Virus record (IMG/VR): IMGVR_UViG_3300021226_000189
Strand: one strand, 5' to 3'
DNA from: a virus
DNA: 64,000 bases
The notes below the pieces were generated by a model, which was given only the letters and a program-made list of their open reading frames with translations, did no database searches and had not been told where the DNA came from. Below are positions 35,699 to 64,000 of the stretch, piece after piece. The position numbers and the translations under genes were made by a program. Numbering within the stretch: position 1 is the stretch's first letter; each line of letters opens with the position of its first letter.

Positions 35699-36142
35699 AT
35701 GACAATCGCACAACAATTAAAAATTAAAGAATTTCCTTTTGTAATCAAAGATTCCAATGGTAATGTGATTTACCATGAGGATTCCTCTGGACATTGGGTA
35801 AAACGTGAATGGGATGCCAATGGTAAAGTGATTTACTATGAGGCTTCCAAGGGATTTTGGATAAAATACGAATACGATGCCAATGGTGACGAGATTTACT
35901 GTGAGTCTTCCTCTGGATATTGGAGAAAACGTGAATGGGATGTCAATGGTAATCAGATTTACTATGAGACTTCCGATGGATATTGGTCAAAACACGAATA
36001 CGATGACAAGGGTAATGAGATTTACTATGAGAGTTCGAAGGGAGCAATCGAAGACAAACGTCCTAAAACAGAAGTTCAAAAGGCAATCGAACTCCTCACT
36101 AAAGAGGGATTGCTGGTGGATGGTAAGATTCTAAAAAACTAG
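35699..36142 (+). CDS. MTIAQQ repeat family copy 1 (4 repeat units, 147 aa)
   Basis: Constant caps plus 21-aa repeats. Confidence 0.9.
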   Translation: MTIAQQLKIKEFPFVIKDSNGNVIYHEDSSGHWVKREWDANGKVIYYEASKGFWIKYEYDANGDEIYCESSSGYWRKREWDVNGNQIYYETSDGYWSKHEYDDKGNEIYYESSKGAIEDKRPKTEVQKAIELLTKEGLLVDGKILKN

Positions 36143-36156
36143 AATACAATCACAAT

Positions 36157-36474
36157 ATGACAATCGCACAGCAATTAAAAATCAAAGACTTCCCGTTTGA
36201 AATCAAGGATGCCAATGGTAAAGAGATTTACTATGAGTTTTCCTCTGGATATTGGGAAAAACGTGAATACGATACCAATGGTAAATTGATTTACTATGAG
36301 GATTCCACTGGATATTGGGTAAAATATGAATACGATGACAAGGGTAATGAGATTTATTTTGAGAATTCCAAGGGAGTAATCGAAGACAATCGTCCTAAGA
36401 CTGATGTCCAACAAGCAATCGAACTCCTCACTAAAGAGGGATTGATTGCGGATGGTAAGATTCTAAAAAACTAG
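36157..36474 (+). CDS. MTIAQQ repeat family copy 2 (2 units, 105 aa)
   Basis: As above; motif-N6-ATG. Confidence 0.9.
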   Translation: MTIAQQLKIKDFPFEIKDANGKEIYYEFSSGYWEKREYDTNGKLIYYEDSTGYWVKYEYDDKGNEIYFENSKGVIEDNRPKTDVQQAIELLTKEGLIADGKILKN

Positions 36475-36488
36475 AATACAATCGTAGT

Positions 36489-36827
36489 ATGACAATCGCA
36501 CAGCAATTAAAAATCAAAGACTTCCCTTTTGAAATCAAGGATTCCAATGGTAAAGTGATTTACTTTGAGGATTCCACTGGATATTGGTCAAAACGTGAAT
36601 ACGATGCCAATGGTAATGTGATTTACTATGAGAATTCCAATGGATATTGGTCAAAACACGAATACGATTCCAATGGTGATTGGATTTACTATGAGGATTC
36701 CAATGGAGTAATCGTAGACAAACGTCCTAAGATAGAAGTTCAAAAGGCAATCGAACTCCTCACTAAAGAGGGATTGCTGGTGAATCTTGGTTGGATTCTG
36801 ATTATTAAAAAACTAAAATACAATTGA
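36489..36827 (+). CDS. MTIAQQ repeat family copy 3 (2 units, C-terminus replaced)
   Basis: Cap diverges after EGLLV. Confidence 0.85.
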   Translation: MTIAQQLKIKDFPFEIKDSNGKVIYFEDSTGYWSKREYDANGNVIYYENSNGYWSKHEYDSNGDWIYYEDSNGVIVDKRPKIEVQKAIELLTKEGLLVNLGWILIIKKLKYN

Positions 36828-36830
36828 GAC

Positions 36831-37007
36831 ATGAAAGCAAGCTATCGAAAAGTAAAGAACGGATTCTACCCTGTCATCATCTTCAATGACAAATCGAGAA
36901 TGACACATAGAACATTGTGCTGCACTAAAGAATTGGCTATCAATTTGGCACATAATATCATTCTAGGGATCGAGCAATACCGAGAAAAAGAATGTATTAT
37001 CCTATGA
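36831..37007 (+). CDS. Small hypothetical protein (58 aa, not in ORF track)
   Basis: Motif-N6-ATG; TGA overlaps next ATG. Confidence 0.55.
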   Translation: MKASYRKVKNGFYPVIIFNDKSRMTHRTLCCTKELAINLAHNIILGIEQYREKECIIL

Positions 37008-37273
37008 GAGATAAATTAAAAAGAAAAACAGTCTTCTTACCAATCATTGCGGAAATCGATGTTGAAGAGTGTATCTCTAACATGAGTTATGAGGAAGTCA
37101 TGGATCTCATTATCAAATTTGATTTGGCACAAGCGAATGCGGGATTCACTGAAGAATTGATTATCAAATTGGCTAAATCAATGAAAGATGATCTATCTGA
37201 AGAGGAATGGAAACCATACGAAAAATTCATCAAAGCAATCGAACAAGCCAATGAAACCTGCACAGATTCGTAA
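37004..37273 (+). CDS. Hypothetical protein
   Basis: ATGA-coupled. Confidence 0.6.
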   Translation: MRDKLKRKTVFLPIIAEIDVEECISNMSYEEVMDLIIKFDLAQANAGFTEELIIKLAKSMKDDLSEEEWKPYEKFIKAIEQANETCTDS

Positions 37274-37481
37274 GAAAGAAGATATGATGCTTGCTGAAAA
37301 AGCTTTACGTGAAAATAAGCAAGCACCATATGATGATTCTTTCAATCCTTGGGGCGATGATGAACCTTTGAGAAAAGATAGATTTAAAAGATATTACGAA
37401 GGCATCCATAAACGCTTTTGGAATTACGAACCAATCTTCAGGGATTTATGCGAAGTTTATGGATTAGAATTGAAAAATTAA
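37251..37481 (+). CDS. Hypothetical protein
   Basis: Packed ORF; stop begins the motif. Confidence 0.55.
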   Translation: MKPAQIRKKEDMMLAEKALRENKQAPYDDSFNPWGDDEPLRKDRFKRYYEGIHKRFWNYEPIFRDLCEVYGLELKN

Positions 37482-37506
37482 AAAACTAGAATACAATCGT
37501 AACACA

Positions 37507-38463
37507 ATGCAACTTAATACTCTCGAAACAAAATTCGCCAAATGCTCGTCTATTCAAATTCCAGATGCGTTCTACAATCGCATGTCTACTGGTAACGATG
37601 ATATCGATTTGATGTTCGGCACTGAGCAATTCAAAGGCTTTATGCCAGGTAGTGCTATCACCATCACTGGTACTCCAGGTGCTGGTAAATCCACTCTTCT
37701 CTGTCAGGTATCTCAGATGCTTACCACTCAAGGTAAACGTGCTGCTATCGCTTCTGGTGAAGAGTCTCATATTCAAATCGCTTATGCTTGCAAGCGTTTG
37801 GGTGTGACTGATGTGGATGTAGCTCATATCAAAGATGTGGAAGAAATCGCTGCTGCCATGCATCATTATGATTTCATGGTTGTGGATAGCTTTCAAGCTT
37901 TGCGTTCGAATAAGAACATGAAGAAGAGAGAGTTCAACCAATATGCTCAAGACTTACTCCTTTCCACTGCTAAAGAAACTGGTTGTGTTCTGGTGTTTGT
38001 TCTTCATATTACTGTTAGTGGTCTTCCTAAAGGTGGCACTGATGTCATCCATGCTGTCGATGTGAATATGCGTGTGACAGTGGACAAAGAAGACAATTCT
38101 ATGCGTCTGATTGATGTTTACAAGAATCGCTTTGGTGAAACTAAAACTCATATGGCTATGATGACTCCTAACGGTTTTGATTTCAAAGGTCTTTATGTTG
38201 CTCCTACTGAGGAAAACAAAGAAAAGCAACCCAAAGTTCCTGCAAATGAAAAGCGCAAAGAAGAGATTCTTTCCATGGATGAACCTCCTCACTTGACATT
38301 GGATCGTATCTGTGATAAGTTGGGTGTGTCAGGGCAAATTGCTGGTAGCATCCTACGCGAAATGGTTGGAGAAGGCAAGCTTCAGAAATTCGGTCGTGGT
38401 GCAAATGCTGTGTGGAAGATCGCACAAGAGTGTCAGAAACTTCATAAAGAATTGGTGAAATAA
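37507..38463 (+). CDS. RadA/Sms-like RecA-family ATPase with C-terminal winged-HTH-like segment
   Basis: GTPGAGKSTL, SGEES, VVDSFQ, H.VD, KNRFG. Confidence 0.8.
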   Translation: MQLNTLETKFAKCSSIQIPDAFYNRMSTGNDDIDLMFGTEQFKGFMPGSAITITGTPGAGKSTLLCQVSQMLTTQGKRAAIASGEESHIQIAYACKRLGVTDVDVAHIKDVEEIAAAMHHYDFMVVDSFQALRSNKNMKKREFNQYAQDLLLSTAKETGCVLVFVLHITVSGLPKGGTDVIHAVDVNMRVTVDKEDNSMRLIDVYKNRFGETKTHMAMMTPNGFDFKGLYVAPTEENKEKQPKVPANEKRKEEILSMDEPPHLTLDRICDKLGVSGQIAGSILREMVGEGKLQKFGRGANAVWKIAQECQKLHKELVK

Positions 38464-38464
38464 T

Positions 38465-38917: not shown

Positions 38918-38920
38918 TAT

Positions 38921-39136: not shown

Positions 39137-39221
39137 AAAATAGAATATACTGATTCTATAGGGTTGACAAAAAACGGAAATAGAGTAAAAAGAAATAGTG
39201 AAACAAACAATACAGTGAACG

Positions 39222-40232
39222 ATGAAACATTATACATTCCCAAAGATTAAACAATATCATCAAGTTCTTCGTGATATTAAATTGCGGATATCTTATATTG
39301 GAAAGGACGAAAATGATGAAGTAATTTATAAAGAGCCTGATACTTGGCCTATTATCAAATTCATAGGAAGAATTAAGCTACATGGCACTAATGCTGCTAT
39401 CGTTTTTAATTCAGATGGATCATTTTATTGTCAATCGAGAGAAAATATCATCAACGAAATTCAAGATAATGCTGGTTTTGCTCATTGGGTTAATAAAGAT
39501 GGGAAGGTTATTCGGAATGAAATCAGCACATCTTTCAAAGACGGTGTGAAACATATAATTTTGTTTGGTGAATGGTGCGGTGGTTCTATTCAAAAAGGTG
39601 TCGCACTAAATCAATTAAGTAAAAGGTTTGTCATATTCGGTATGAAAGCGGTGTTTGAAGACGATACTACTGAATGGTTGGATTCATCTGGTATTCGGAA
39701 TCATTCTATCAACGTGTATAATATTGACGATTATCGTAAATACGAAATCGATATCGATTTGAATCGTCCTGACAATGCTATTGAACAAATGACACAATGG
39801 ACTGGCGAAATTGGGGATGAATGTCCATTTTCCAAAGAGTTTGGAGTGTTAGGTGTGGGAGAGGGAATCGTGTGGAGAATGGAAAATGAATGGGGATACT
39901 CAACATCATTCAAAACAAAAGATGAAAAACATACTATTTCCAAAATTAAAAAGCTCCCTACGGTTGACGTGCAAAAATTAGACTCTATCCAAGAAGCCGT
40001 CGATACTCATTGTCATGAAGATAGATTACAACAAATTTACGATAAAATCGTTCTAACAGAAGCCGATAAAGTTCCTCAAAAGATCGGAGATTTTGTGCGT
40101 TTGGTGATTGAAGATTGTTGGGAAGAAGAAGGCGATTCTATCAGAGCATCAGATATTTCCAGAAAAGAATTCGGTGCTGCTTGTTCTAAAAAAATAGCCA
40201 AATGGTTTCAAAATAAAATTTCACAACTATGA
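39222..40232 (+). CDS. RNA ligase, Rnl2-like
   Basis: Motif I KLHGTN, LFGEWCG, F..F, GEGIV, K.K..K. Confidence 0.8.
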   Translation: MKHYTFPKIKQYHQVLRDIKLRISYIGKDENDEVIYKEPDTWPIIKFIGRIKLHGTNAAIVFNSDGSFYCQSRENIINEIQDNAGFAHWVNKDGKVIRNEISTSFKDGVKHIILFGEWCGGSIQKGVALNQLSKRFVIFGMKAVFEDDTTEWLDSSGIRNHSINVYNIDDYRKYEIDIDLNRPDNAIEQMTQWTGEIGDECPFSKEFGVLGVGEGIVWRMENEWGYSTSFKTKDEKHTISKIKKLPTVDVQKLDSIQEAVDTHCHEDRLQQIYDKIVLTEADKVPQKIGDFVRLVIEDCWEEEGDSIRASDISRKEFGAACSKKIAKWFQNKISQL

Positions 40233-40798
40233 AATTACTAATCGTACGCCATGGAGAATCGGAGGGGAACGTTGACAAATCGGTGTATTTCAAAATGCCT
40301 GACTGGTCAGTTCCTCTAACGGAAAAAGGTAAAGAACAAGCTAAAAAGGTTGGGAAAGTAATCTCAAAACATCTTGAAGAAGAGGATGAATGTTTCTTGG
40401 TTTACAGCCCTTATGTTAGAGCGAAGCATACGATGGAAATTATCAGTGAATGTATTACTCATCATATTCCATTATATAAAAAAGAACAAGTAATTACCAA
40501 AGAACGTGAATGGGGAAACCTTAGAGAAGAATACGAATCATTCAGAACCAGAGAAGAACGTAATCATTTATTCGATTTCTATCGTCGTCCTGTTGGTGGT
40601 GAGTCCTTTGCTGATTGTTATCAAAGAGCATTGATTTTTTTGAATTGGTTAAAAGAGTTGGAAACTGGAAACGCTATCATTGTATCACATGGGGAATTTA
40701 TCAAAACATTGCTGATGATCATTGATAATGTGAAGGTGGAAGACTTCGATAAAATTCCTCGCGTTAAGAACTGTGAATTGATTATCAGACATTACTAA
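40229..40798 (+). CDS. Histidine phosphatase (phosphoglycerate mutase family)
   Basis: VRHGESEGN, SPY.RA, GGES, VSHG. Confidence 0.9.
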   Translation: MKLLIVRHGESEGNVDKSVYFKMPDWSVPLTEKGKEQAKKVGKVISKHLEEEDECFLVYSPYVRAKHTMEIISECITHHIPLYKKEQVITKEREWGNLREEYESFRTREERNHLFDFYRRPVGGESFADCYQRALIFLNWLKELETGNAIIVSHGEFIKTLLMIIDNVKVEDFDKIPRVKNCELIIRHY

Positions 40799-40820: not shown

Positions 40821-41018
40821 ATGGTGACGAAATTAAATAAACAATACGATCCTGATGAAGTTCTGTCTTCCATTCAGAAAATTGACGAGAAGCTTTCTAT
40901 TCTGAGAGAGTCTTGGCAAGATGCTGATGAGAAGAAGAAAGACAAATGGATGAAAATGATTAACGAACAACTCGATCAACGTTTGACATTGATGAGCATT
41001 CGTGATAAAATGGGATGA
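40821..41018 (+). CDS. Hypothetical protein
   Basis: Motif-N6-ATG; stop overlaps tRNA-Ser 5' end. Confidence 0.65.
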   Translation: MVTKLNKQYDPDEVLSSIQKIDEKLSILRESWQDADEKKKDKWMKMINEQLDQRLTLMSIRDKMG

Positions 41019-41098
41019 TGCCAGAGTGGTAATGGTCTGGTCTTGAAAACCAGAGACAACCCTGACAGGTTGCGGAGGTTCGATCCCTTCTCATCTCG
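41012..41098 (+). tRNA. tRNA-Ser(TGA)
   Basis: Acceptor GGGATGA/TCATCTC, anticodon arm CTGGT-CTTGAAA-ACCAG, long variable arm, TTCGATC T-loop, G73. Confidence 0.88.
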
Positions 41099-41140
41099 CT
41101 CAAAAAACTTGACTTAATCGTTTGAAGTGTTAAATTAGAT

Positions 41141-41494
41141 ATGATGAAAGTAATCGCATTATTATGTATTTTATGTAACTTTTGTTATTCTGCTGAATAT
41201 GGGGTAGCATCCTTTTATTCAATCAGGACAAATGGTGGCACGAAAACTGCTAGCGGTGAACCTCTTTGTAACGATAAATTCACCGTTGCTCATAAAAAAA
41301 TCCCACTAGGGACGATGGTTAAAGTGACAAATCTATCTAATGGTAAACATGTTTATGCAAAAGTAACTGATAGAGGTCCTTATGTTAAAGGGCGAGTTAT
41401 TGACGTTTCCGATGCGTGTGCAGACGTTTTAAGATTTCGTCATAAAGGTTTGACAAAAGTAAAAATTGAAGTAATTAAAAGAACAAAAAAATGA
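41141..41494 (+). CDS. RlpA-like double-psi beta-barrel protein with signal peptide
   Basis: G.ASFY, TASGE, T.AHK..PLGT.VKVTN..NG, V.DRGPY..GR.IDVS. Confidence 0.88.
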   Translation: MMKVIALLCILCNFCYSAEYGVASFYSIRTNGGTKTASGEPLCNDKFTVAHKKIPLGTMVKVTNLSNGKHVYAKVTDRGPYVKGRVIDVSDACADVLRFRHKGLTKVKIEVIKRTKK

Positions 41495-44037: not shown

Positions 44038-44244
44038 ATGCAAAAATACACAATCATTTGGGAAGATCGTTGGATGCGAGGCTCACACCAGCATTGCATC
44101 ACAAAAAGAACATGGGTGGAAGCTGAGAATATTCATGATGTGATGGTAGAGTATGGTGAATACGCTCGCTTCATCTTCGAAGGTCATCAATTGTCGATTG
44201 GTGAAGAATTGCGTCCAGAAGAAATCGAAATTATTAAAAAATAA
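44038..44244 (+). CDS. Hypothetical protein
   Basis: Motif-N6-ATG (start moved from 43894). Confidence 0.7.
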   Translation: MQKYTIIWEDRWMRGSHQHCITKRTWVEAENIHDVMVEYGEYARFIFEGHQLSIGEELRPEEIEIIKK

Positions 44245-44246
44245 TT

Positions 44247-44459
44247 ATGCAAATCAGCAAAGAAATTGAAATAATTCCTGATCGTTATTACGGATATTCT
44301 GTGGCAGATTGGAATAAAGAGGCTGGTTGTGATGGCATTACCATTCAAACCTTCAATATCTCCAAGACTGGTAGGGAAAATTCTCATCATATCACCATGA
44401 ACAAAGAAGTCGCTATCGCTATTGCCAATGCTATCTTTGAACTTTGTAACGAAAAATAA
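44247..44459 (+). CDS. Hypothetical protein
   Basis: Packed ORF. Confidence 0.6.
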   Translation: MQISKEIEIIPDRYYGYSVADWNKEAGCDGITIQTFNISKTGRENSHHITMNKEVAIAIANAIFELCNEK

Positions 44460-44461
44460 TT

Positions 44462-44734
44462 ATGGGAGATTGGGTACATATTACAGGTGGTAGATTCTCT
44501 ATCTATAAAAAAGATAAAGTATCTCCTGAAAAGGTTTTCGAAGAAATCGTAGGTGATAATTCAATCGAAATTGAAAAATTGGATGGTGGTGATCGTTGGC
44601 AATACCGAATTAACGAGATTGCATTGCGAACAGACGGTAACACTTTCATGAAATATTATCCAAAATTATTGAAAAATCTTAAACCGATTAAAAATTCTCT
44701 ATCTTTTGAGATCGAATTCAGCTTACACGAATAA
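44462..44734 (+). CDS. Hypothetical protein
   Basis: Packed ORF; stop begins motif. Confidence 0.65.
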   Translation: MGDWVHITGGRFSIYKKDKVSPEKVFEEIVGDNSIEIEKLDGGDRWQYRINEIALRTDGNTFMKYYPKLLKNLKPIKNSLSFEIEFSLHE

Positions 44735-44756
44735 AAAACTAGAATACACTTATAAC

Positions 44757-44927
44757 ATGCTTATCAACAACATTATTTATTATATCATTTGTTTTGTGAT
44801 CGGTGGTCTCGCAGGTAAATTTATTAAAAATAAATACTATGCTCTTGCAATCGCTCCCATAGTATCAGTAATTCTCGGGATGATTTTACAACATTTCGGG
44901 CTAATCGGTTATGGATTTCTTAAATAA
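44757..44927 (+). CDS. Small membrane protein
   Basis: Motif-N6-ATG; hydrophobic. Confidence 0.6.
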   Translation: MLINNIIYYIICFVIGGLAGKFIKNKYYALAIAPIVSVILGMILQHFGLIGYGFLK

Positions 44928-45219
44928 TATGTTCAATATACCTAGAATTGTAATTGGGTTTTTCTTATTCAATCTTGGATTTCTCATTCCAGTAGTAGGG
45001 ATATTCCCTATGCTCATTGGTGGATATTTCCTGTCACGATTGATTGCGGAAGAATACGGTATTGCCATATTCTTTTTCATTGGAGTATCACTACTGATAC
45101 CGTCATACTACATGATAGTTCCAGTATTTGAACAAATTGGATGGGAATATGGTAAAGTGATCAGATATACGATGTGTTTGATCGCATCAGTTATGACATG
45201 GCTATCAGTTGGAAAATAA
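44911..45219 (+). CDS. Membrane protein
   Basis: Several hydrophobic segments. Confidence 0.65.
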   Translation: MDFLNNMFNIPRIVIGFFLFNLGFLIPVVGIFPMLIGGYFLSRLIAEEYGIAIFFFIGVSLLIPSYYMIVPVFEQIGWEYGKVIRYTMCLIASVMTWLSVGK

Positions 45220-45233
45220 TTACTAAATTAAAT

Positions 45234-45740
45234 ATGACAATCGCACAACAATTAAAAATTAAAGACTTCCCTTTTGAAATCAAAGATTCCAATGGTAATT
45301 GTATTTACTATGAGAATTCCCATGGATATTGGGAAAAACATGAATACGATGCCAATGGTAAATTGATTTACTCTGAAACTTCTGATGGACATTGGGAAAA
45401 ACGTGAATACGATATCTATAATAATCTGATTTACTTTGAGAATTCCTTTGGACATTGGGAAAAACGTGAATGGGATGCCAATGGTAATCGGATTTACTTT
45501 GAGGATTCCTCTGGATATTGGCTAAAACAAGAATACGATATCTATAATAATCTGATTTACTTTGAGAATTCCTTTGGACATTGGGAAAAACGTGAATGGG
45601 ATGCCAATGGTAATCGGATTTACTATGAGAACTCTAGGGGAATAATTATAGACAATCGCCCTAAGACAGAAGTTCAGAAAGCAATCGAACTCCTCACTAA
45701 AGAGGGATTGATTGCGGATGGTAAGATTCTAAAAAACTAA
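45234..45740 (+). CDS. MTIAQQ repeat family copy 4 (5 units, 168 aa)
   Basis: Start moved from 45174 to the family ATG. Confidence 0.9.
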   Translation: MTIAQQLKIKDFPFEIKDSNGNCIYYENSHGYWEKHEYDANGKLIYSETSDGHWEKREYDIYNNLIYFENSFGHWEKREWDANGNRIYFEDSSGYWLKQEYDIYNNLIYFENSFGHWEKREWDANGNRIYYENSRGIIIDNRPKTEVQKAIELLTKEGLIADGKILKN

Positions 45741-45754
45741 AATACCATCATAAC

Positions 45755-46198
45755 ATGACAATCGCACAACAATTAAAAATTAAAGAATTTCCTTTTGCAA
45801 TCGATGATAAAAATGGTAGAGAGATTTACTATGAGGATTCCTCTGGATTTTGGGAAAAATATGAATACGATATCTATAATAATCTGATTTACTTTGAGGA
45901 TTCCTCTGGATATTGGGAAAAACGTGAATACGATACCAATGGTAATCGGATTTACTTTGAGGATTCCTCTGGATATTGGAGAAAACGTGAATACGATACC
46001 AATGGTAATTGTATTTACTATGAGAATTCCAATGGATATTGGGTAAAACGTGAATGGAATGCCAATGGTAATTGTATTTACTTTGAGGATTCCTCTGGAG
46101 CAACCGAAGACAATCGCCCTAAGACAGAAGTTCAGAAAGCAATCGAACTCCTCACGAAAGAGGGATTGATTGCGGATGGTAAGATCCTAAAAAACTAG
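45755..46198 (+). CDS. MTIAQQ repeat family copy 5 (4 units, 147 aa)
   Basis: Caps plus repeats. Confidence 0.9.
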   Translation: MTIAQQLKIKEFPFAIDDKNGREIYYEDSSGFWEKYEYDIYNNLIYFEDSSGYWEKREYDTNGNRIYFEDSSGYWRKREYDTNGNCIYYENSNGYWVKREWNANGNCIYFEDSSGATEDNRPKTEVQKAIELLTKEGLIADGKILKN

Positions 46199-46212
46199 AA
46201 TACAATCACAAT

Positions 46213-46485
46213 ATGACAATTGCACAGCAATTAAAAATTAAAGACTTTCCTTTTGTAATCAAAGATACCAATGGTAGAGAGATTTACTGTGAGAATTCCA
46301 ATGGATATTGGGAAAAAGGTGAATACAATACCAATGGTAAAGTGATTTACTATGAGAATTCCAATGGATTTTGGGTAAAATGTGAATACGATGCCAATGG
46401 TAATTGTATTTACTTTGAGGATTCGAAGGGACAATCATTGACAATCGTCCTAAGACTGATGTCCAACAAGCAATTGAGATCCTAA
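46213..46485 (+). pseudogene. MTIAQQ repeat family copy 6 (2 units), frameshifted with a C-cap deletion
   Basis: GGA-CAATC lacks one base versus siblings; LLTKEGLIxDGK segment deleted. Confidence 0.8.
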
Positions 46486-46501
46486 AAAACTAAAACACAA
46501 T

Positions 46502-46945
46502 ATGACAATCGCACAACAATTAAAAATTAAAGACTTCCCTTTTGAAATCAAGGATTCCAATGGTAAATTGATTTACTATGAGGCTTTCGATGGATATTGG
46601 GTAAAATATGAATACGATGCCAATGGTAAATTGATTTACTATGAGGCTTCCCATGGATATTGGGAAAAACGTGAATACGATGCCAATGGCGAAGAGATTT
46701 ACTGTGAAAATTCTGATGGATATTGGGAAAAACGTGAATACGATGCCAATGGTAATCGGATTTACTTTGAGACTTCCTCTGGATATTGGTCAAAACGTGA
46801 ATGGGATACCAACGGTAATCGGATTTACTATGAGAATTCCAATGGAGTAATCGAAGACAATCGCCCTAAGACTGATGTCCAACAAGCAATCGAACTCCTC
46901 ACGAAAGAGGGATTGATTGTGGATGGTAAGATCCTAAAAAACTAG
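46502..46945 (+). CDS. MTIAQQ repeat family copy 7 (4 units, 147 aa)
   Basis: Caps plus repeats; upstream motif truncated. Confidence 0.9.
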   Translation: MTIAQQLKIKDFPFEIKDSNGKLIYYEAFDGYWVKYEYDANGKLIYYEASHGYWEKREYDANGEEIYCENSDGYWEKREYDANGNRIYFETSSGYWSKREWDTNGNRIYYENSNGVIEDNRPKTDVQQAIELLTKEGLIVDGKILKN

Positions 46946-47188: not shown

Positions 47189-47677
47189 ATGCACGAAATA
47201 TATAACCCTATTAATTTATTAGGAAAAGAATTGGAAGTCTCTTATCATGTCGATGATGAGGGAGAAGATGCCAAGGTGGTAGAACTTGAAGCAGTGAATG
47301 GTGAGAGACGATTTGAAATCGTATTTACAAAATTACCAGAAACAGAGGATGATGAACGATTTTTTTGGGTGGATCAAGAACCATATGAGATTGTTGGTGA
47401 TAAAGCAGCTTTCTCTGATATTGGACACATGCGAAGAATCTACTTGACAATTAAAAAACTAGAATATACTGAAGAAGTAACAAACAACGAAACAAATATG
47501 AAAACAACTGTTAAAGAATTGAGTGATAAATTGGGTGTGGATGTAGTTTATGTGAATGGATTCATTCAAACACTGGTTAAGATTGGTAAAGCTGAAGCGG
47601 TGGGTAAGGTTGAAAAACCTGCTGGTGCGCGTGGTAAACCATCTATCATTTATCAAATCGCAGAAGGGATTCTGTAA
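47189..47677 (+). CDS. Apparent in-frame fusion of two genes across a promoter motif (second start 47498, HTH-like)
   Basis: Motif read as KKLEY at 47453; MKTTVKELSDKLGVD..FIQTLVKIG follows an A/C-rich leader. Confidence 0.55.
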   Translation: MHEIYNPINLLGKELEVSYHVDDEGEDAKVVELEAVNGERRFEIVFTKLPETEDDERFFWVDQEPYEIVGDKAAFSDIGHMRRIYLTIKKLEYTEEVTNNETNMKTTVKELSDKLGVDVVYVNGFIQTLVKIGKAEAVGKVEKPAGARGKPSIIYQIAEGIL

Positions 47678-48135: not shown

Positions 48136-48516
48136 ATGACAATCGCACAGCAATTAAAAATCAAAGACTTCCCGTTTAAAATCAAAGATTCCAATGGTAA
48201 AGAGATTTACTATGAGAGTTCCAAGGGCTATTGGGTAAAATATGAACACGATGCCAATGGTAAAGAGATTTACTTTGAGACTTCCAATGGATATTGGGAA
48301 AAACGTGAATACGATGCCAATGGTAATCAGATTTACTGTGAGTCTTCCTCTGGATATTGGTCAAAACGCGAATACGATACCAATAATAATCTGATTTACT
48401 TTGAGGATTCCTATGGAGAAATCATCGACAAACGTCCTAAGACAGAAGTTCAGAAAGCAATTGAACTCCTCACGAAAGAGGGATTGATTGTGGATGGAAA
48501 GATTCTAAAAAACTAA
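48136..48516 (+). CDS. MTIAQQ repeat family copy 8 (3 units, 126 aa)
   Basis: Caps plus repeats. Confidence 0.9.
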   Translation: MTIAQQLKIKDFPFKIKDSNGKEIYYESSKGYWVKYEHDANGKEIYFETSNGYWEKREYDANGNQIYCESSSGYWSKREYDTNNNLIYFEDSYGEIIDKRPKTEVQKAIELLTKEGLIVDGKILKN

Positions 48517-54862: not shown

Positions 54863-55057
54863 AAAGACTTACTAAAGAAGAAATCGAACGATTTGTCACT
54901 GCTTCCACAAATAAGGATGCTGTATGGAATTTCCTTGGCACTGTTCACCATTGCGGTAATTATGTCAATGCTCTTGCCAATCTGTTAGACGATGCGGCAT
55001 TGTATGATTGGAATCATGACACTGTGATGGCAATCTATGAGGGATTGAAATACGCAA
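54859..55057 (+). pseudogene. Small gene interrupted near its 3' end by TnpB element 1
   Basis: Joining 55057 to 56314 gives ..GLKYASKW* (69 aa). Confidence 0.55.
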
Positions 55058-56279
55058 GTGAATTACCCACAGCACGAGGCTGTGGCTTCAGTCTAACTAA
55101 CTTAGACTTCTTTTTAGACGCTTCACAGACAGCAGTTTCGCAAGAAGTATTACTACCTCCTACCAGAGCTTCCATCTCCACATCTGTAATCGCCAATCCC
55201 TGACGATGAATATTCTTTGCGGCATTAACATCCCTTTGGTGATGAGAACCACACTTAGGACATTTCCAATGCCTCACTGACAAAGGTAGCTTATCAATAA
55301 TATAATCACAAGAAGAGCATGTTTTGGATGATGGATAGAATCTATCTATCTTTATCACTTTCTTACCATACCATTGCGCTTTATATTCTAGCATAGATAC
55401 AAAAGAACTCCAAGAACTATCAGATATACTATAAGATAATTTACTATTTCTTACCATATTCTTGACAGCCAAAGATTCCAAAGAAATCATATCATACCGA
55501 TTGATAAGATCAGTGGATAGCTTGTGTTGGAAATCCTTACGAGAATTGGTTATCTTCTCATGGATTCTTGCTATCTTATTTCTTTGTCTTTTGTATCTAT
55601 TACTACCTTTCGTTTTCCTACTTAAATGTTTTTGAGCTTTTGAGAGCTTCTGTTTGAGATTTCTATTAAAATTAGGATTCTTTACTTTCCCACCATCTGA
55701 AGTTACTATGAAATCGTTAATACCTAAATCAATACCTACTGTCTTGCCTGTCTTCTCTTTGATCTTCTTAGGAACTTCCATTAAGATACTGGCAAAATAT
55801 TTATTAGTGGGTGTTTTAGAAATTGTTACGGATTTAATCTCGCCTTCTAACTTACGATGTAATATAATGGGAATACCATCTTTAAACTTTGGAATGTGAA
55901 TCCTATTATCTTTTAAGGATATGTGTTGGGGGACTCTAAAAGATTGGTTTTCTGATTTCTTTTTAAACTTTGGAAATTTAGATTTCTTACGGAAGAAATT
56001 TCCATAAGCAGTCTCAAGATTCATAAGAGATTGTTGTAAGGTTTGGGAATTGACTTCTTTAAGCCATTGGTAATCACCCTTTTTCATGGCAATCACATTA
56101 CCAGCGCATTGATTATAATTCAATGTCTTTCCATTGTTTAAATAATGATTTTGTTTTTCTTTTAGAAAATGATTATATATGAATCGGGAGCATCCAAAGT
56201 GCTTTCCAAGCAATTCCTTTTGAGAATCCAAAGGATAGATTCTGAATTTGAAGGCTTGATATGTAATTTCTTGTTCTAT
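55035..56279 (-). CDS. tnpB: TnpB RNA-guided nuclease (copy 1)
   Basis: AFKFRIYP HTH, RuvC GIDLG / LESL / RDVNAAKNI, CxxC-CxxC; start extended to ATA 56279. Confidence 0.92.
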   Translation of the reverse strand: MEQEITYQAFKFRIYPLDSQKELLGKHFGCSRFIYNHFLKEKQNHYLNNGKTLNYNQCAGNVIAMKKGDYQWLKEVNSQTLQQSLMNLETAYGNFFRKKSKFPKFKKKSENQSFRVPQHISLKDNRIHIPKFKDGIPIILHRKLEGEIKSVTISKTPTNKYFASILMEVPKKIKEKTGKTVGIDLGINDFIVTSDGGKVKNPNFNRNLKQKLSKAQKHLSRKTKGSNRYKRQRNKIARIHEKITNSRKDFQHKLSTDLINRYDMISLESLAVKNMVRNSKLSYSISDSSWSSFVSMLEYKAQWYGKKVIKIDRFYPSSKTCSSCDYIIDKLPLSVRHWKCPKCGSHHQRDVNAAKNIHRQGLAITDVEMEALVGGSNTSCETAVCEASKKKSKLVRLKPQPRAVGNSLAYFNPS

Positions 56280-56793: not shown

Positions 56794-57189
56794 TCATCCT
56801 TGGGATTCTATATATTTTTTAATGGTTTCTATAGATGCATCACCACATGAGCATACAAAATATCCATCAGACCATAGGGTTCTCTCTTTCCAATAATTTT
56901 CTTTCATTTTCTTAGGATATCTTTTCCACATTTCTTTAGTTGATAATGATTTTAATGTTCTCACGATTGTCAAAGGGGATAATTTCGGAACTGAATTGAT
57001 AAGGATGTGAATATGATCCTCATCAGTTTCCAAGATATCTATATTAAAATCGTATTCTTCTGATATATTAACCATGATTTCTTTCAAAGTCAAATCAAAA
57101 TCACCTCTCAACAATCGTTTTCTATACTTTGTTGAGAAAATTATATGGTATTTCAATAGAAATTTCGAGTGATTTTTAGATACATACAA
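56794..57189 (-). CDS. tnpA: IS200/IS605 Y1 HUH transposase
   Basis: YHIIFSTKYRK, DHIHIL, LWSDGYF, IKKYIESQ. Confidence 0.95.
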   Translation of the reverse strand: MYVSKNHSKFLLKYHIIFSTKYRKRLLRGDFDLTLKEIMVNISEEYDFNIDILETDEDHIHILINSVPKLSPLTIVRTLKSLSTKEMWKRYPKKMKENYWKERTLWSDGYFVCSCGDASIETIKKYIESQG

Positions 57190-57249: not shown

Positions 57250-58479
57250 ATAGAACAGGAAATTACATATCAAGCCTTCAAATTTAGAATATATCCTTTG
57301 GATTCTCAAAAGGAATTGCTTGAGAAGCATTTCGGATGTTCAAGATTCATTTATAATCATTTTTTGAAAGAGAAACAAGAAGAATATCTATCTTCTGGTA
57401 AGGGATTAACATATAGTAAGTGTTGTAAGATTCTAAAGGAATTAAAAGATAATGAATTAGAATGGTTGAAAGAAGTCAATTCACAGACCTTACAACAATC
57501 AATTCAAAATCTTGAGACTGCTTATGGAAACTTCTTTCGTAAGAAATCCAAATTTCCAAAGTTTAAAAAGAAATCAGAAAACCAATCCTTTAGGGTTCCC
57601 CAACACATTTCTTTGAAAGACAATAGACTCTTCATTCCAAAATTCAAAGATGGAATACCCATTGTATCACATCGTAAGTTAGAAGGTGAGATAAAGAGTG
57701 TTACGATTTCTAAAACACCTACTGATAAATATTTTGCTAGTATCTTAATGGAAGTTCCTAAAAAGTCTAAATCAAAGACTGGCAAGACCGTAGGAATTGA
57801 TTTAGGTATTATAGATTTCATAGTAACAAGCGATGGGGAGAAAATCAAGAATCCAAATTTTTCAAGATCATTAAAAGATAAATTAAAGACTCATCAAAAA
57901 CATTTAAGTAGGAAAACGAAAGGTAGTAATAGATACAAAAGACAAAGAAAGAAAGTGGTAAGAATCCATGAGAAGATAACCAATTCTCGAAAGGATTTTC
58001 AACACAAATTAAGCACTCGTTTGATTAATGAGTATGATATGATTTCTTTGGAATCTTTAGCTGTTAAGAATATGATACGGAATAGGTGCTTATCCTATTC
58101 CATATCTGATAGCTCTTGGAGTTCTTTTGTATCCATGTTGGAATATAAAGCCAGTTGGTATGGGAAGGAGATTAAGAAAATCGATAGATGGTATCCTAGT
58201 TCCAAGACATGCTCAAGCTGTGATTATATTATTGATAAGCTACCTTTGTCAGTGCGTAAGTGGCAATGTCCCGAGTGTGGTTCTCATCACCAAAGGGATG
58301 TCAATGCTGCTAAAAATATACATCGTCAGGGATTGACGATTACAGATGTGGAGATGGAAGCTCTGGTAAGAGGTAGTAATACTTCTCACGAAACTACTGT
58401 CTGTGAAGCGTCTAAAAAGAAGTCTATATCAGATCGAAAGATTTATAGACTGAAGCCGCTGGGTCTTGCCCAGCGGTAG
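57250..58479 (+). CDS. tnpB: TnpB RNA-guided nuclease (copy 2)
   Basis: Same intact motifs as copy 1; start extended to ATA 57250. Confidence 0.92.
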   Translation: MEQEITYQAFKFRIYPLDSQKELLEKHFGCSRFIYNHFLKEKQEEYLSSGKGLTYSKCCKILKELKDNELEWLKEVNSQTLQQSIQNLETAYGNFFRKKSKFPKFKKKSENQSFRVPQHISLKDNRLFIPKFKDGIPIVSHRKLEGEIKSVTISKTPTDKYFASILMEVPKKSKSKTGKTVGIDLGIIDFIVTSDGEKIKNPNFSRSLKDKLKTHQKHLSRKTKGSNRYKRQRKKVVRIHEKITNSRKDFQHKLSTRLINEYDMISLESLAVKNMIRNRCLSYSISDSSWSSFVSMLEYKASWYGKEIKKIDRWYPSSKTCSSCDYIIDKLPLSVRKWQCPECGSHHQRDVNAAKNIHRQGLTITDVEMEALVRGSNTSHETTVCEASKKKSISDRKIYRLKPLGLAQR

Positions 58480-58848: not shown

Positions 58849-59166
58849 ATGACAATCGCACAGCAATTAAAAATTAAAGACTTCCCTTTTACAATCAATG
58901 ATAAAAATGGTAATCAGATTTACTGGGAGACTTCCAATGGATATTGGTCAAAACGCGAATACAATACCAATGGTAATGTGATTTACTTTGAGACTTCCGA
59001 TGGATATTGGTTAAAACGTGAATACGATACCAATGGTAAATTGATTTACTTTGAGAATTCCTATGGAACAATCAAAGACAATCGCCCTAAAACAGATGTT
59101 CAAAAGGCAATCGAACTTCTTGAGAAAGAAGGATTGATTGTGGATGGAAAGATTCTAAAAAACTAG
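58849..59166 (+). CDS. MTIAQQ repeat family copy 9 (2 units, 105 aa)
   Basis: Caps plus repeats. Confidence 0.9.
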   Translation: MTIAQQLKIKDFPFTINDKNGNQIYWETSNGYWSKREYNTNGNVIYFETSDGYWLKREYDTNGKLIYFENSYGTIKDNRPKTDVQKAIELLEKEGLIVDGKILKN

Positions 59167-59182
59167 AATACAATCAACACAT

Positions 59183-59997: not shown

Positions 59998-60072
59998 GTG
60001 TCGTTCGTCTAACGGATAAGACTTGGGGATTCTACCCCCACAATACGGGTTCGATTCCTGTACGGCACACCA
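59998..60072 (+). tRNA. tRNA-Arg(TCT)
   Basis: GTGTCGT/ACGGCAC acceptor, GTCT/AGAC D-stem, TGGGG-ATTCTAC-CCCCA, encoded CCA. Confidence 0.85.
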
Positions 60073-60073
60073 T

Positions 60074-61132
60074 TTATTTTTTATTAAAATAACCTCTTGG
60101 TGGATAATCTGTGATGTCATATGATTTGCACCATTTTCTAACAGCATTATCAGACACTCCATATTTTTCACCCAATCTAGTGAAAGGTAATTCCCATAAC
60201 ATTTTTTCAAGTTCTTCCTTTTCAGGTCTATCTATAACTTTTCTGCGTCCAATTCTAAAACATGTCATACATTGCTTTGCGTCCGAGTCTTTGATATTAC
60301 CGCATTTACATAACTCTTTCATTTTTACCGTTTCTTTTTTAACATGTTTAAGTATGATGTTATGAATAATTTTCTGTGGTTTTTCTTTCCGTGGTTTTTC
60401 TTTCCGTGGTTTTTCTTTCTGACGTTTTTCGGCTTTCATATTGGAATAATTCAATGAACAAGGTCTACATCTGATAGCTCTTTTATCTATATGTTTACCG
60501 CAATCAACACAATATTTTAATTTCTTCATTTTCGGAACATAATTGAAATAATCAAATTCAACTTTAACATTTGCGTTTGATAACTCATCTATAAAATCAC
60601 TCCATTTATTTAAATTGAAACATGCTGAATAATGAATCTCGTATACATCCCATCCATTAGCTTCTAACAAATCATGTCTTTCTTGATAGTAAGATTTCAA
60701 TGTTCCGTCTCTTTCATAATGCTGATTACCATTGATTTCTAAAGCTATCATCTTATCAGGTAATGCAATGTCAATTGAAAACGATCTACCATCAATTTCT
60801 GGTTGATACTCTTCAATGAATGGAATATTTAATTGTGTTAGAAATTCTTTCACTTTCTCACAAGGTTTTGATTTAAATTTATCTTTATTTCTCCAAGGAT
60901 GTTTATCAGGATTATCTTTCAACCATTGCTTTCTCTTTTCTGATAGATTCTTTTTCGTTTCCTCTGTATGTATTACTGGTTTTGATTTATTGATTTTTAT
61001 ATTATTGTTTTTAAGAGTCTTTCTTACCAGACAATCAGACACGTTCAAATGATTTGCAATCTCCATCACGGTCAATCCTTTATCAGATAGCTCTTGTAAT
61101 TTTTCAATACTAAGATAAATTTTCTTCGGCAT
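60074..61132 (-). CDS. Vsr/DUF559-like PD-(D/E)xK endonuclease with HTH and Zn-finger modules, probable homing endonuclease
   Basis: DIALPDKMIALEINGNQH, CxxC..CxxC clusters, terminal HTHs; TAAATA-N5-ATG. Confidence 0.75.
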   Translation of the reverse strand: MPKKIYLSIEKLQELSDKGLTVMEIANHLNVSDCLVRKTLKNNNIKINKSKPVIHTEETKKNLSEKRKQWLKDNPDKHPWRNKDKFKSKPCEKVKEFLTQLNIPFIEEYQPEIDGRSFSIDIALPDKMIALEINGNQHYERDGTLKSYYQERHDLLEANGWDVYEIHYSACFNLNKWSDFIDELSNANVKVEFDYFNYVPKMKKLKYCVDCGKHIDKRAIRCRPCSLNYSNMKAEKRQKEKPRKEKPRKEKPQKIIHNIILKHVKKETVKMKELCKCGNIKDSDAKQCMTCFRIGRRKVIDRPEKEELEKMLWELPFTRLGEKYGVSDNAVRKWCKSYDITDYPPRGYFNKK

Positions 61133-61216
61133 ATAAGTATTTAACAGAATAACCTTACTTTACAAATAAGACTAATCTGATAAATAAAAACTAGAATACA
61201 TTACTTTACATACAAT

Positions 61217-61292
61217 GCGCTGATAGCTCAGTGGTTAGAGCAGGGTGCTCATAACGCCTTGGTCGTGGGTTCGAATCCCTCTCAGCGTACCA
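61217..61292 (+). tRNA. tRNA with CAT anticodon (elongator Met or lysidine Ile2)
   Basis: GCGCTGA/TCAGCGT acceptor, loop CTCATAA, CCA encoded; lacks initiator features. Confidence 0.88.
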
Positions 61293-61323
61293 ATTCTCTA
61301 AAAAACTAGAATACAATCACAAT

Positions 61324-61704
61324 ATGACAATTGCACAACAATTAAAAATTAAAGACTTCCCTTTTACAATCAATGATTCCAATGGTAAAGAGATTTACTA
61401 TGAAGCTTCCAATGGATATTGGCAAAAACGTGAATACGATACCAATGGTAATCGGATTTACTTTGAGACTTCCAATGGAACTTGGGTAAAACGCGAATAC
61501 GATACCAACGGTAAAGAGATTTACTTTGTGGATTCCGATGGATATTGGGCAAAACGTGAATGGGATACCAATGGTAATGAGATTTACTTTGAGAATTCCG
61601 ATGGAGAAATCATTGACAATCGTCCTAAGACTGATATTCAGAAAGCAATTGAATTTCTTGAGAAAGAGGGATTGATTGTGGATGGTAAGATCCTAAAAAA
61701 CTAG
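61324..61704 (+). CDS. MTIAQQ repeat family copy 10 (3 units, 126 aa)
   Basis: Caps plus repeats. Confidence 0.9.
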   Translation: MTIAQQLKIKDFPFTINDSNGKEIYYEASNGYWQKREYDTNGNRIYFETSNGTWVKREYDTNGKEIYFVDSDGYWAKREWDTNGNEIYFENSDGEIIDNRPKTDIQKAIEFLEKEGLIVDGKILKN

Positions 61705-61718
61705 AATACAATCACAAT

Positions 61719-62036
61719 ATGACAATCGCACAGCAATTAAAAATCAAAGACTTCCCTTTTACAATCAATGATTCCAATGGTAAATTGATTTACTATGAGA
61801 ATTCCAATGGATATTGGAGAAAATATGAATACGATGCCAATGGTAATGTGATTTACTTTGAGAATTCCACTGGACATTGGGAAAAACGTGAATGGAATTC
61901 CAATGGTATTCGGATTTACTTTGAGACTTCCTATGGAACAATCGTAGACAATCGTCCTAAGACAGAAGTTCAGAAAGCAATCGAACTCCTCACGAAAGAG
62001 GGATTGATTGTGGATGGAAAGATTCTTAAAAACTAG
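61719..62036 (+). CDS. MTIAQQ repeat family copy 11 (2 units, 105 aa)
   Basis: Caps plus repeats. Confidence 0.9.
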   Translation: MTIAQQLKIKDFPFTINDSNGKLIYYENSNGYWRKYEYDANGNVIYFENSTGHWEKREWNSNGIRIYFETSYGTIVDNRPKTEVQKAIELLTKEGLIVDGKILKN

Positions 62037-62050
62037 AATACACTCATAAC

Positions 62051-62431
62051 ATGACAATCGCACAGCAATTAAAAATTAAAGACTTCCCTTTTGAAATCAA
62101 GGATTCCAATGGTAAAGTGATTTACCTTGAGGATTCCAATGGATATTGGTCAAAACATGAATACGATGCCAATGGTAATCAGATTTACTGGGAAAATTCC
62201 AATGGATCTTGGTCAAAGCGTGAATACGATTCCAATCGTATTCGGATTTACTTTGAGACTTCCGATGGATATTGGTTAAAACGTGAATACGATACCAATT
62301 GTAATTGTATTTACTATGAGAATTCCGATAGAACAATCATTGACAATCGTCCTAAGACAGAAGTTCAAAAGGCAATCGAACTTCTTACGAAAGAGGGATT
62401 ACTGGTGGATGGAAAGATTCTAAAAAACTAG
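62051..62431 (+). CDS. MTIAQQ repeat family copy 12 (3 units, 126 aa)
   Basis: Caps plus repeats. Confidence 0.9.
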   Translation: MTIAQQLKIKDFPFEIKDSNGKVIYLEDSNGYWSKHEYDANGNQIYWENSNGSWSKREYDSNRIRIYFETSDGYWLKREYDTNCNCIYYENSDRTIIDNRPKTEVQKAIELLTKEGLLVDGKILKN

Positions 62432-62445
62432 AATACAATCGTAGT

Positions 62446-62634
62446 ATGACAACACAAGAAATTAACGATCTGGAAAGCCAATTCGATACTGTAGCAATCG
62501 AGATTCTTGATGCTCTAAAAAGCAATCCAAAATACATACAAATCAAAGCAAAATTCGATTTGTTGCAATCCATGATGCAAAACGCTATCGGTGAAGAATT
62601 TCCTGATAGTTGGATGGCAGAATTAAAAAACTAA
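62446..62634 (+). CDS. Hypothetical protein
   Basis: Motif-N6-ATG; ends KN* in the next motif. Confidence 0.7.
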   Translation: MTTQEINDLESQFDTVAIEILDALKSNPKYIQIKAKFDLLQSMMQNAIGEEFPDSWMAELKN

Positions 62635-62648
62635 AATAAAATATTTTT

Positions 62649-62731
62649 CGGAGTGTGTCCAAATTGGTAAAGGAGATCGACTTAAAATCGATTGGCACTG
62701 CGCCTTATGGGTTCGAGTCCCATCACTCCGA
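62649..62731 (+). tRNA. tRNA-Leu(TAA)
   Basis: CGGAGTG/CACTCCG acceptor, ATCGA-CTTAAAA-TCGAT, long variable arm, ATGGG-TTCGAGT-CCCAT; CCA not encoded. Confidence 0.9.
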
Positions 62732-62774
62732 CTTTCTTCCACCCATAATTAAAAAACTAGAATACAATTGATCT

Positions 62775-62969
62775 ATGGAATACATTAAACGATATAATTG
62801 GACAATCCGCAATACTGTAACTGGTCAAACGGCTGGGTATAATTGTTGGAATGGTGCTTGTGATGAAGATCATGTTCGCAATAGTCCATCTGTTCAAGCT
62901 TGGGCAAATGGTGATGAAATCGAAGTGATTGCAGAAACGTTTGAAGACTATGATGATCTTCAAGGTTAA
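62775..62969 (+). CDS. Hypothetical protein
   Basis: Motif-N6-ATG. Confidence 0.65.
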   Translation: MEYIKRYNWTIRNTVTGQTAGYNCWNGACDEDHVRNSPSVQAWANGDEIEVIAETFEDYDDLQG

Positions 62970-62991
62970 AAAACTAGAATACAATTGAGCC

Positions 62992-63666
62992 ATGACAAAA
63001 ACATACGATACCTTTCTCCCTATCTTCTCTGGATTCTACAATACCATTTGGGATGAATCCGAATCTTGGATGGAATGTGAACTTGATAGTGAAGAGTGTT
63101 TCCGTGAACACTATCCTGAATTCGATGGTATTCCTTTCGATTTCATTAGAGACAATTTTTGGGATATTGTCGATTGTCGCCAAGGTTTTGAGGGTGTGCT
63201 TGATTACATCGTGAGCGTGTTTCCTCGGTGGTTCAATGGTGAAGTGGGTTCTGATATTATCAAAAACGTCACTTTACAAAAGATCGTTTCCCCTCGTGAA
63301 TACAATTTCTGTAACGATTCTGCTGATGTTTCCATTGAAGTTGATACGGATTTGATTGCCAAGTATCTGCAAGAAAACGGTCATGCTTTCTCTGAGTATC
63401 TGAAAAAACGATACACTTCTCGTGATGGGTTCATCTCTCATTATTCTAACGATATTTCAGAATGGGCTGAAGACACTAACGATTTCACCGACTTCTCTGT
63501 CAATGGTCATTACTTGGGCGCGATTCTGGAATTTATTGTGAACGATTCCATTGATGATGCGGAAATGTCATTGTTCTATTCTGCAAATACTCATGAGGGA
63601 TTCTCTAACAGCGTGGGAGTCGATACTGCACGATTGGTGGAAAAATGGGAAGCATCGAAAGATTAA
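62992..63666 (+). CDS. Hypothetical acidic protein
   Basis: Motif-N6-ATG; FSGFYNTIW, SPREYNF.ND, YTSRDGFIS. Confidence 0.8.
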   Translation: MTKTYDTFLPIFSGFYNTIWDESESWMECELDSEECFREHYPEFDGIPFDFIRDNFWDIVDCRQGFEGVLDYIVSVFPRWFNGEVGSDIIKNVTLQKIVSPREYNFCNDSADVSIEVDTDLIAKYLQENGHAFSEYLKKRYTSRDGFISHYSNDISEWAEDTNDFTDFSVNGHYLGAILEFIVNDSIDDAEMSLFYSANTHEGFSNSVGVDTARLVEKWEASKD

Positions 63667-63688
63667 AAAACTAGAATACACTCATAAC

Positions 63689-64000
63689 ATGACAATCGCA
63701 CAGCAATTAAAAATTAAAGAATTTCCTTTCGGAATCAAGGATAAGAATAGTAATCAGATTTACTATGAGAATTCCACTGGATATTGGATAAAACGTGAAT
63801 GGGATGCCAATGGTAATCGGATTTACTTTGAGGATTCCAATGGATATTGGACAAAACATGAATACGATACCAATGGTAATTGGATTTACTATGAGAATTC
63901 CGAAGGAACAATCGAAGACAAACGTCCCAAGACTGATGTCCAAAAGGCAATCGAACTCCTCACGAAAGAGGGATCGATTGTGGATGGTAAGATTCTAAAA
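63689..64000 (+). CDS. MTIAQQ repeat family copy 13 (2 units; last codon and stop beyond window)
   Basis: 104 codons read to the window edge ending KILK; absent from ORF track. Confidence 0.9.
   Translation, partial: MTIAQQLKIKEFPFGIKDKNSNQIYYENSTGYWIKREWDANGNRIYFEDSNGYWTKHEYDTNGNWIYYENSEGTIEDKRPKTDVQKAIELLTKEGSIVDGKILK

Follow-up and report, generated by a model that had tools for sequence, protein, structure and literature searches.

A multi-copy phage gene family with hypervariable codons in a 63-bp repeat, probably shaped by concerted evolution and diversifying selection

Locus and gene family

The subject of this report is a family of small genes built from a 63-bp repeat in the IMG/VR virus record IMGVR_UViG_3300021226_000189. 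The DNA analysed (referred to as the window) is a stretch of 64,000 nucleotides (nt), which is phage-like, has a G+C content of 31-41% and forms one end of a contig of 198,244 bp. A preliminary description, prepared from the window sequence only, had noted about 50 units of the repeat in which five codons vary at the first two positions and mostly keep the third. The units are present, 38 full and 13 partial, but they do not form a single array: they are spread over 13 paralogous genes on the + strand, which form six clusters in the interval 35.7-64.0 kb. The pattern is probably the result of concerted evolution by ectopic recombination among the repeat cassettes combined with diversifying selection, with no dedicated mutator involved.

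Each gene encodes a constant head of 17 amino acids (aa; MTIAQQLKIK...), two to five full units of 21 aa, a partial unit of 13 aa and a constant tail of 32 aa that ends in DGKILKN. The full unit follows the formula D-x-N-G-x-x-I-Y-x-E-x-S-x-G-x-W-x-K-x-E-Y. The intact proteins have lengths of 105, 126, 147 or 168 aa, and the genes thus differ by exact 63-bp steps.

Gene 1 (35699..36142, 147 aa) consists of the head, four full units, the partial unit and the tail. It is followed by gene 2 (36157..36474, 105 aa, two full units and the partial unit) and gene 3 (36489..36827, 112 aa), which also has two full units and the partial unit, and in which small insertions or deletions alter the last approximately 12 residues of the tail. 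Gene 4 (45234..45740, 168 aa) is built of five full units and the partial unit; its units 3 and 5 are the same DNA, owing to an exact internal duplication of 126 bp that appears to be recent. Genes 5 (45755..46198) and 7 (46502..46945) encode 147 aa each, with four full units and the partial unit. Between them lies gene 6 (46213..46485, 90 aa, two full units and the partial unit), which is probably a pseudogene because its tail is frameshifted and partly deleted. Three full units and the partial unit are found in gene 8 (48136..48516, 126 aa), gene 10 (61324..61704, 126 aa) and gene 12 (62051..62431, 126 aa), and two full units and the partial unit in gene 9 (58849..59166, 105 aa), gene 11 (61719..62036, 105 aa) and gene 13 (63689..64000, at least 104 aa), the last of which is truncated by the end of the window. 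The copy number in this phage, counted in the 64-kb window only, is a lower bound of at least 13.

A promoter-like motif with the consensus AAAAAACTAGAATACAAT occurs between positions 25894 and 63668 of the window and ends about 6-9 nt ahead of the ATG. A looser pattern of it was counted 32 times on the + strand and not once on the - strand of the window. The motif precedes many small genes and is present, exactly or with one or two base changes, before 11 of the 13 family genes; it encloses the stop codon of the preceding family gene. Since these 11 genes have a promoter-like motif of their own, we take this to mean that the family genes would be expressed individually, in a block of small genes of the early or middle class. 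An assembly artefact was considered as a source of the repeats and rejected, since the architecture recurs in an isolate phage (P8625) and in numerous independent assemblies.

Codon-level variation in the repeat unit

Alignment of the units with per-site statistics and dN/dS upheld the pattern, which goes far beyond chance. At the five hypervariable codons named in the preliminary description (codons 2, 6, 11, 13 and 17 of the unit), mean nucleotide diversity is 0.635, 0.542 and 0.116 at codon positions 1, 2 and 3, respectively, compared with 0.087, 0.129 and 0.120 at the remaining 16 codons. Third-position variation is thus far below that of the first two positions, and this contrast supports the earlier statement that the pattern is the opposite of neutral drift. 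The claim of dN far above dS was confirmed as well, with a pooled Nei-Gojobori dN of 0.93 and dS of 0.066 at the five codons (ratio 14, which is not to be read as a ratio of rates, see below), against a dN of 0.028 and a dS of 0.096 at the scaffold codons. The list of variable codons was incomplete; codon 9 (at position 2), codons 15 and 19, codon 5 (N/K) and codon 21 (Y/W) also vary.

The kept third base is strictest at codon 17, which is NNA in 38 of 38 full units with ten different codons. Exceptions are TGT at codon 6 (five times), AAG at codon 13 (five times) and AAA or AAG at codon 2 (three times). By parsimony, at least 133 changes are required over 16 hypervariable first and second positions, against 13 over their eight third positions; 15 are required at the 13 other third positions. 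These counts are conservative, as they used a tree made from the very sites that were counted. The 38 full units comprise 37 distinct haplotypes, so a few ancestral unit types (two or three had been considered) cannot account for the variation.

Synonymous codon choice tracks the position in the unit and not the amino acid, as observed for Ser, Val, Arg, Leu, Glu, Thr and Ala. Serine is TCC, TCT and TCA at codons 2, 13 and 17, valine is GTC, GTG and GTA at codons 2, 6 and 17, and codons 10 and 20 encode glutamate by GAG and GAA, respectively. The observed agreement between codons and the third base of their unit position is 0.895, compared with a mean of 0.663 and a maximum of 0.714 when synonymous codons are shuffled within amino acids (p<=2e-4). 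Codon-usage bias is ruled out as the cause of the fixed third bases, since one and the same amino acid has different fixed codons at different unit positions. The alleles of a variable codon thus go back to a single ancestral codon, in which bases 1 and 2 were replaced. The residues permitted at each position are restricted, being small at codon 2 and mostly aromatic at codon 9.

Relatives and concerted evolution

Close homologs of the family number 2,492. With a profile search, 3,353 representatives were obtained at E<=1e-10, among them multi-repeat proteins of the YD type that are much longer, and those clusters of the family for which a source is known are viral. The isolate phage P8625 has one copy, and relatives carry one to seven copies versus at least 13 in this phage. 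Homologs with 61-70% identity were also observed on the short single-cell-genome contigs L054, L055, L056 and L066, from two Marinimicrobia (SAR406) cells and one alphaproteobacterium; these possibly hint at marine hosts, or they may represent co-sorted phage DNA.

Ten phage lineages, each with at least 10 units, were compared. The same structural positions are hypervariable in all ten lineages, and the frozen third bases are specific to the lineage. Codon 6 is NNG in this phage and in lineage L002 and NNA in seven other lineages, and the repertoire E/V/R/L/Q recurs on each background. Codon 11 is NNT or NNC depending on the lineage. The scaffold codons for Ile (ATT/ATC), Tyr (TAC/TAT) and Gly14 (GGA/GGC/GGT) switch among lineages, as do those for Ser, Lys and Glu. 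The silent-site difference between units is 0.05-0.35 within a genome (0.05 here, the lowest value) versus approximately 0.45-0.65 between genomes, so that across the ten lineages the repeats are silently more alike within than between genomes. The difference at positions 1 and 2 of the hypervariable codons is 0.40-0.52 within versus approximately 0.5-0.6 between genomes. Head and tail DNA gives a matching picture: the nearest neighbours of all 11 window genes with intact tails are other window genes. Silent uniformity within genomes and saturation between them reads as the classical signature of concerted evolution, here with site-specific diversification added.

Whole arrays also differ between relatives. 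Phages L042, L043, L047, L048 and L049 (approximately 75-82% nt identity) do not have the four-gene array of window positions 44240-46930, which lies beside a conserved gene at 47189. The lack of the 45.2-46.9 kb array in several relatives indicates that arrays are gained or lost as blocks at that site.

Footprints of exchange and comparison of strains

Direct footprints of exchange between copies, as expected for a concertedly evolving family, were found. In phage G001, two paralogs located 17 kb apart have in common an identical tract of approximately 124 nt that runs across several variable codons, while their flanks are diverged. In positional orthologs from L045, L050 and L046, the proportion of silent differences (pS) is 0.03-0.06 in flanking genes versus 0.22-0.47 in the termini of the family genes. 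These orthologs contain patches with two to three base changes in each of several neighbouring hypervariable codons, sometimes together with an intervening silent change. Since the scaffolds of donor and recipient are identical, tracts of exchange are visible only at the variable codons and thereby mimic codon-targeted mutation. Linkage was detected only among neighbouring hypervariable codons. A unit-by-unit search for donors between L002 and G001 indicated mosaicism only qualitatively, blurred by the comparison of full with partial units.

The sister-lineage strains L002 and L003 have approximately 99% average nucleotide identity (ANI) to each other and approximately 79% to the window. Between them, the seven family genes (about 2.5 kb) show 0 differences, versus 31 differences in about 3.3 kb of flanks. 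The sole family change is one gene gained or lost through recombination between paralogs. A diversity-generating retroelement (DGR), or a mutator active in every cycle, would make the family regions the most variable ones, and the identity of the family genes in L002 and L003 therefore argues against both.

The search for a reverse transcriptase and for a template copy in this phage covered the 64-kb window of the 198,244-bp contig. No reverse transcriptase was found among the 20 window open reading frames (ORFs) of at least 200 aa, and no RVT_1 domain in five related phage records that carry the family (four estimated to be 100% complete, four with terminal repeats). No unit-like copy was found outside the 13 family genes on either strand of the window, and hence no template copy is present in it. 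Invariant adenines stand directly beside variable sites, for example the third A of codon 17 (38 of 38) and the adenines of codons 3 (AAT) and 18 (AAA). In the seven lineages in which codon 6 is NNA, its A is likewise fixed.

Predicted fold and family annotation

The protein of family gene 10 was folded with AlphaFold2 from an alignment of 71 sequences (predicted local distance difference test 93.4). The model consists of a short helix, nine antiparallel strands in a sheet and a C-terminal helix. The top Foldseek matches are RhsA, Tse15, teneurins and Tc BC (probability 1.0, E 3e-5, root-mean-square deviation 1.4-1.9 A over 82 residues), followed by a weaker match to the single-layer sheet of OspA. 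The YD beta-hairpin repeat fold that characterises Rhs and YD-repeat proteins is thus present in the prediction. The family has no hit in Pfam and PHROGs; the Pfam model RHS_repeat stays below cut-off, with E 0.24-0.3 for the window proteins and 20.8 versus 22 bits for the best homolog. Only uncharacterised homologs were found in the viral structure library BFVD, and no description of the family was found in the literature. One source labels a homolog 'YD repeat-containing protein'.

Judged from the model, the family proteins would be stand-alone, open mini YD-repeat sheets and not shells. Variable positions 6, 9 and 11 are assigned to predicted strand A, positions 15, 17 and 19 to strand B, and positions 2 and 13 to the two turns. 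With the register inferred, the model is compatible with one variable face (9, 11, 15, 17, 19) and one conserved face (Y8, E10, W16, K18, E20).

Tail modules are interchangeable among lineages (L053:1060-2802, L011, L019; proteins P0040, P0108, P0029, P0065), and one alternative tail reads like a helix-turn-helix and is similar to the head of the family itself. Head-to-tail fusion of two complete modules is seen in some proteins. Among the longer relatives, Pfam identified scattered fusions to SET, HAD_SAK_1 and DUF5661, and no functional lead beyond those. The varied tails, double modules and enzyme fusions would fit a putative portable binding module.

Interpretation

The explanation considered probable starts from the codon pattern, its recurrence in ten lineages, the homogenisation within genomes, the mosaic tracts, and searches that gave no reverse transcriptase, template or strain-level hypermutation. 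A small phage gene of the mini YD type, made of 63-bp beta-hairpin cassettes, would have undergone a lineage-specific expansion to at least 13 copies. Through four kinds of event, namely slippage or unequal crossing-over (in the 63-bp register), ectopic exchange of short tracts between paralogs, and the gain and the loss of genes, all cassettes of one genome would continue to trace back to a recent common cassette. As a consequence, silent sites would be nearly uniform within the genome, the third base of the variable codons among them. At the protein level, diversifying selection would act on about eight fixed positions of the hairpin, which are alternate residues of both strands and both turns. 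Selection would retain changes at first and second codon positions, and recombination would reshuffle them between cassettes. The preliminary description had left two options open, namely selection with gene conversion and an unknown mutator; the evidence favours the former. Most probably, the mechanism is a known evolutionary one that acts on a previously uncharacterised phage family.

Selection rather than mutation bias probably drives the excess at the hypervariable codons, because homogenisation would affect neutral sites and the third base of the same codon alike and because the allowed residues are position-specific. With the dS of the heads and tails of the family genes (0.33-0.41) as a clock, the excess at the hypervariable codons is about 2.3-2.8. 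In the positional orthologs, the proportion of nonsynonymous differences (pN) at these codons exceeds the pS of the flanks about 2-5 fold.

Several points weigh against this explanation. The 2-5 fold excess over the flanks is partly inflated by imported recombination tracts. Homogenisation lowers dS inside the repeats, so that the ratio of 14 overstates the excess in rate and is not a rate ratio. Diversifying selection is deduced from ratios only (pooled Nei-Gojobori, parsimony). Silent diversity is 0.052 in the units versus 0.17-0.22 in the termini, which, with few sites, gives a Mann-Whitney p=0.09. Linkage decays only weakly with distance (p=0.04 here and 0.009 in L002; in four other lineages the decay is not significant). 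Finally, no near-identical relative of this phage was found, and strain stability was tested only in the sister lineage at approximately 79% ANI. Among GenBank phages there are no near-identical relatives, the best relatives have approximately 80-88% nt identity in IMG/VR and 83-88% aa identity in JGI metagenomes, and an exact look-up of two window proteins matched no contigs.

The variable residues may form a binding surface. The most economical guess is that the proteins constitute a diversified repertoire of binders from the early or middle gene region. A further step is doubtful, though conceivable: the nucleotide-identical scaffold might be kept as homology for frequent cassette shuffling, which would make the family a generator of diversity that works independently of a reverse transcriptase and, in the manner of lamprey variable lymphocyte receptors (VLRs) or Borrelia vls, provides large phages with combinatorial small binders against variable host targets such as defence proteins.

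It is unlikely that the variable codons are neutral or unconstrained and that dN/dS is high because silent sites are held down by homogenisation or by selection on DNA or RNA. Such an explanation can draw on the low dS of the repeats (0.07-0.10), which is below the 0.33-0.41 of the termini of the same genes and inflates the ratio. Homogenisation in contiguous tracts, however, would erase first and second positions just as it erases the adjacent third base, and the diversity of these positions differs about ten-fold. The dN at the hypervariable codons also lies above the dS of the termini, their pN exceeds the pS of the flanks in positional orthologs as given above, and the residues at each position are restricted and position-specific. 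Silent sites vary freely between lineages, so there is no general constraint at the DNA level.

An unknown targeted diversification without reverse transcriptase, either programmed micro-conversion with the scaffold as homology arms or site-directed error-prone synthesis, with selection acting only as a filter, is very unlikely. The unusual uniformity of the scaffold, the near saturation of diversity at the hypervariable codons, and the many such codons at which positional orthologs differ by two to three bases, with no change at the silent sites next to them, all speak for it. Ordinary conversion on an identical scaffold, however, looks codon-restricted as well, and true tracts are visible where silent markers exist. 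Furthermore, the variable positions track protein structure in lineages with different scaffold DNA, the seven family genes are without differences between strains of approximately 99% ANI, and no candidate enzyme was found among the window ORFs of at least 200 aa or in the five related phage records. A DGR, with adenine mutagenesis of template codons (AAY/AAG) as the source of the variants, is almost certainly not at work: codons of the types NNC, NNT and NNG that vary at their first two bases do look like the product of a DGR and AAT is the most frequent codon at unit positions 11 and 13, but neither the window nor the five related records have a reverse transcriptase, the window has no template copy, many invariant adenines adjoin variable sites (those of the NNA codons included, as the preliminary description had rightly held against a classic DGR), 51 targets in 13 genes would be needed, and the strain pair of approximately 99% ANI is without variation in the family genes.

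It follows for other data sets that a DGR-like codon signature is possible without a retroelement, since concerted evolution plus diversifying selection suffices; scans that flag NNY/NNG codons should be read with this caution. The family may be of interest for its stand-alone open YD-repeat sheets with defined hypervariable positions, present in one to at least 13 copies among related phages. If the proteins are binders, the family would mark a point of contact at which large uncultured phages and their hosts are engaged in an arms race, and it could serve as a naturally diversified small scaffold.

Other genes in the window

The window also carries a clamp loader (approximately 41% identity to the closest isolates), two RNA ligases, DUF932 and four tRNAs. 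The tRNA genes are Ser(tga) at 41012-41099, Arg(tct) at 59998-60072, Met(cat) at 61217-61292 and Leu(taa) at 62649-62732. Three of them read TCA, AGA and TTA, all of which are among the NNA alleles of codon 17, probably by coincidence given the AT-rich codon usage. Also located among the small genes are RNA_lig_T4_1 (24060-25157), RNA_ligase (39222-40232), a histidine phosphatase (40229-40798) and DPBB_1, an RlpA-like lytic transglycosylase (41141-41494). The two RNA ligase genes are thus different ones, and the N-terminus encoded by the DPBB_1 gene is signal-peptide-like.

An element of the IS200/IS605 type lies within the phage at 55035-58479. It comprises, by Pfam, TnpB (55035-56231, - strand), a Y1 TnpA (56794-57189, - strand) and a second, diverged TnpB (57298-58479, + strand). 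An ORF of 352 aa (60074-61132, - strand), located between two tRNA genes, has weak matches to HTH_23 and to the RAP domain. The ORF may represent a homing-endonuclease-like insert; four tandem copies of a 15-bp sequence within it (60371-60430) encode a short basic peptide repeat.

Comparison with known systems

The YD shells of Rhs proteins and teneurins (PDB 7q97, 8qja, 6fb3) have in common with the family a beta-hairpin repeat of about 21 residues with the core Y-D-x-x-G-x-x-I. They differ in that the family proteins have two to five repeats and form an open single sheet of 105-168 aa, as opposed to a closed shell of at least about 1000 aa. The family also has no encapsulated toxin domain, Rhs core or cleavage motifs, its tail being a helical stretch of 32 aa. 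Unlike these shells, it is multi-copy in phage genomes, has hypervariable positions and is annotated in viruses only.

In targets of DGRs, for instance Mtd of the Bordetella phage, selected codons of a phage protein vary in the first two bases and the third base is fixed. The family resembles these targets in precisely this respect. It differs from them in having no reverse transcriptase, template repeat, adenine specificity or variation between near-identical genomes, and in its fold.

The repeats of transcription activator-like effectors (TALEs), with their repeat-variable diresidues, and the leucine-rich repeat (LRR) families, such as lamprey VLRs and the nucleotide-binding LRR receptors of plants, are homogenised by recombination and have a few hypervariable positions that determine specificity. 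By analogy only, the family is like them in its near-identical repeat DNA, its hypervariable positions and the change of repeat number by whole units. Fold and host are unrelated, the family has about eight variable positions per 21-aa unit, and there is no evidence in it for a code of one repeat per ligand unit.

Antigenic variation based on cassettes, as in the vls system of Borrelia (PMC3828179), shares with the family a pool of similar cassettes that have a conserved framework, patches of variation in which dN exceeds dS, and exchange from one cassette to another. The family differs in that all its copies appear to be expressed separately, with no expression site fed by silent donors and no sign of programmed switching. 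The nearest fold to the family is thus the Rhs/YD repeat, and the nearest behaviour is that of repeat families of the TALE, LRR/VLR and vls type, not that of a DGR.

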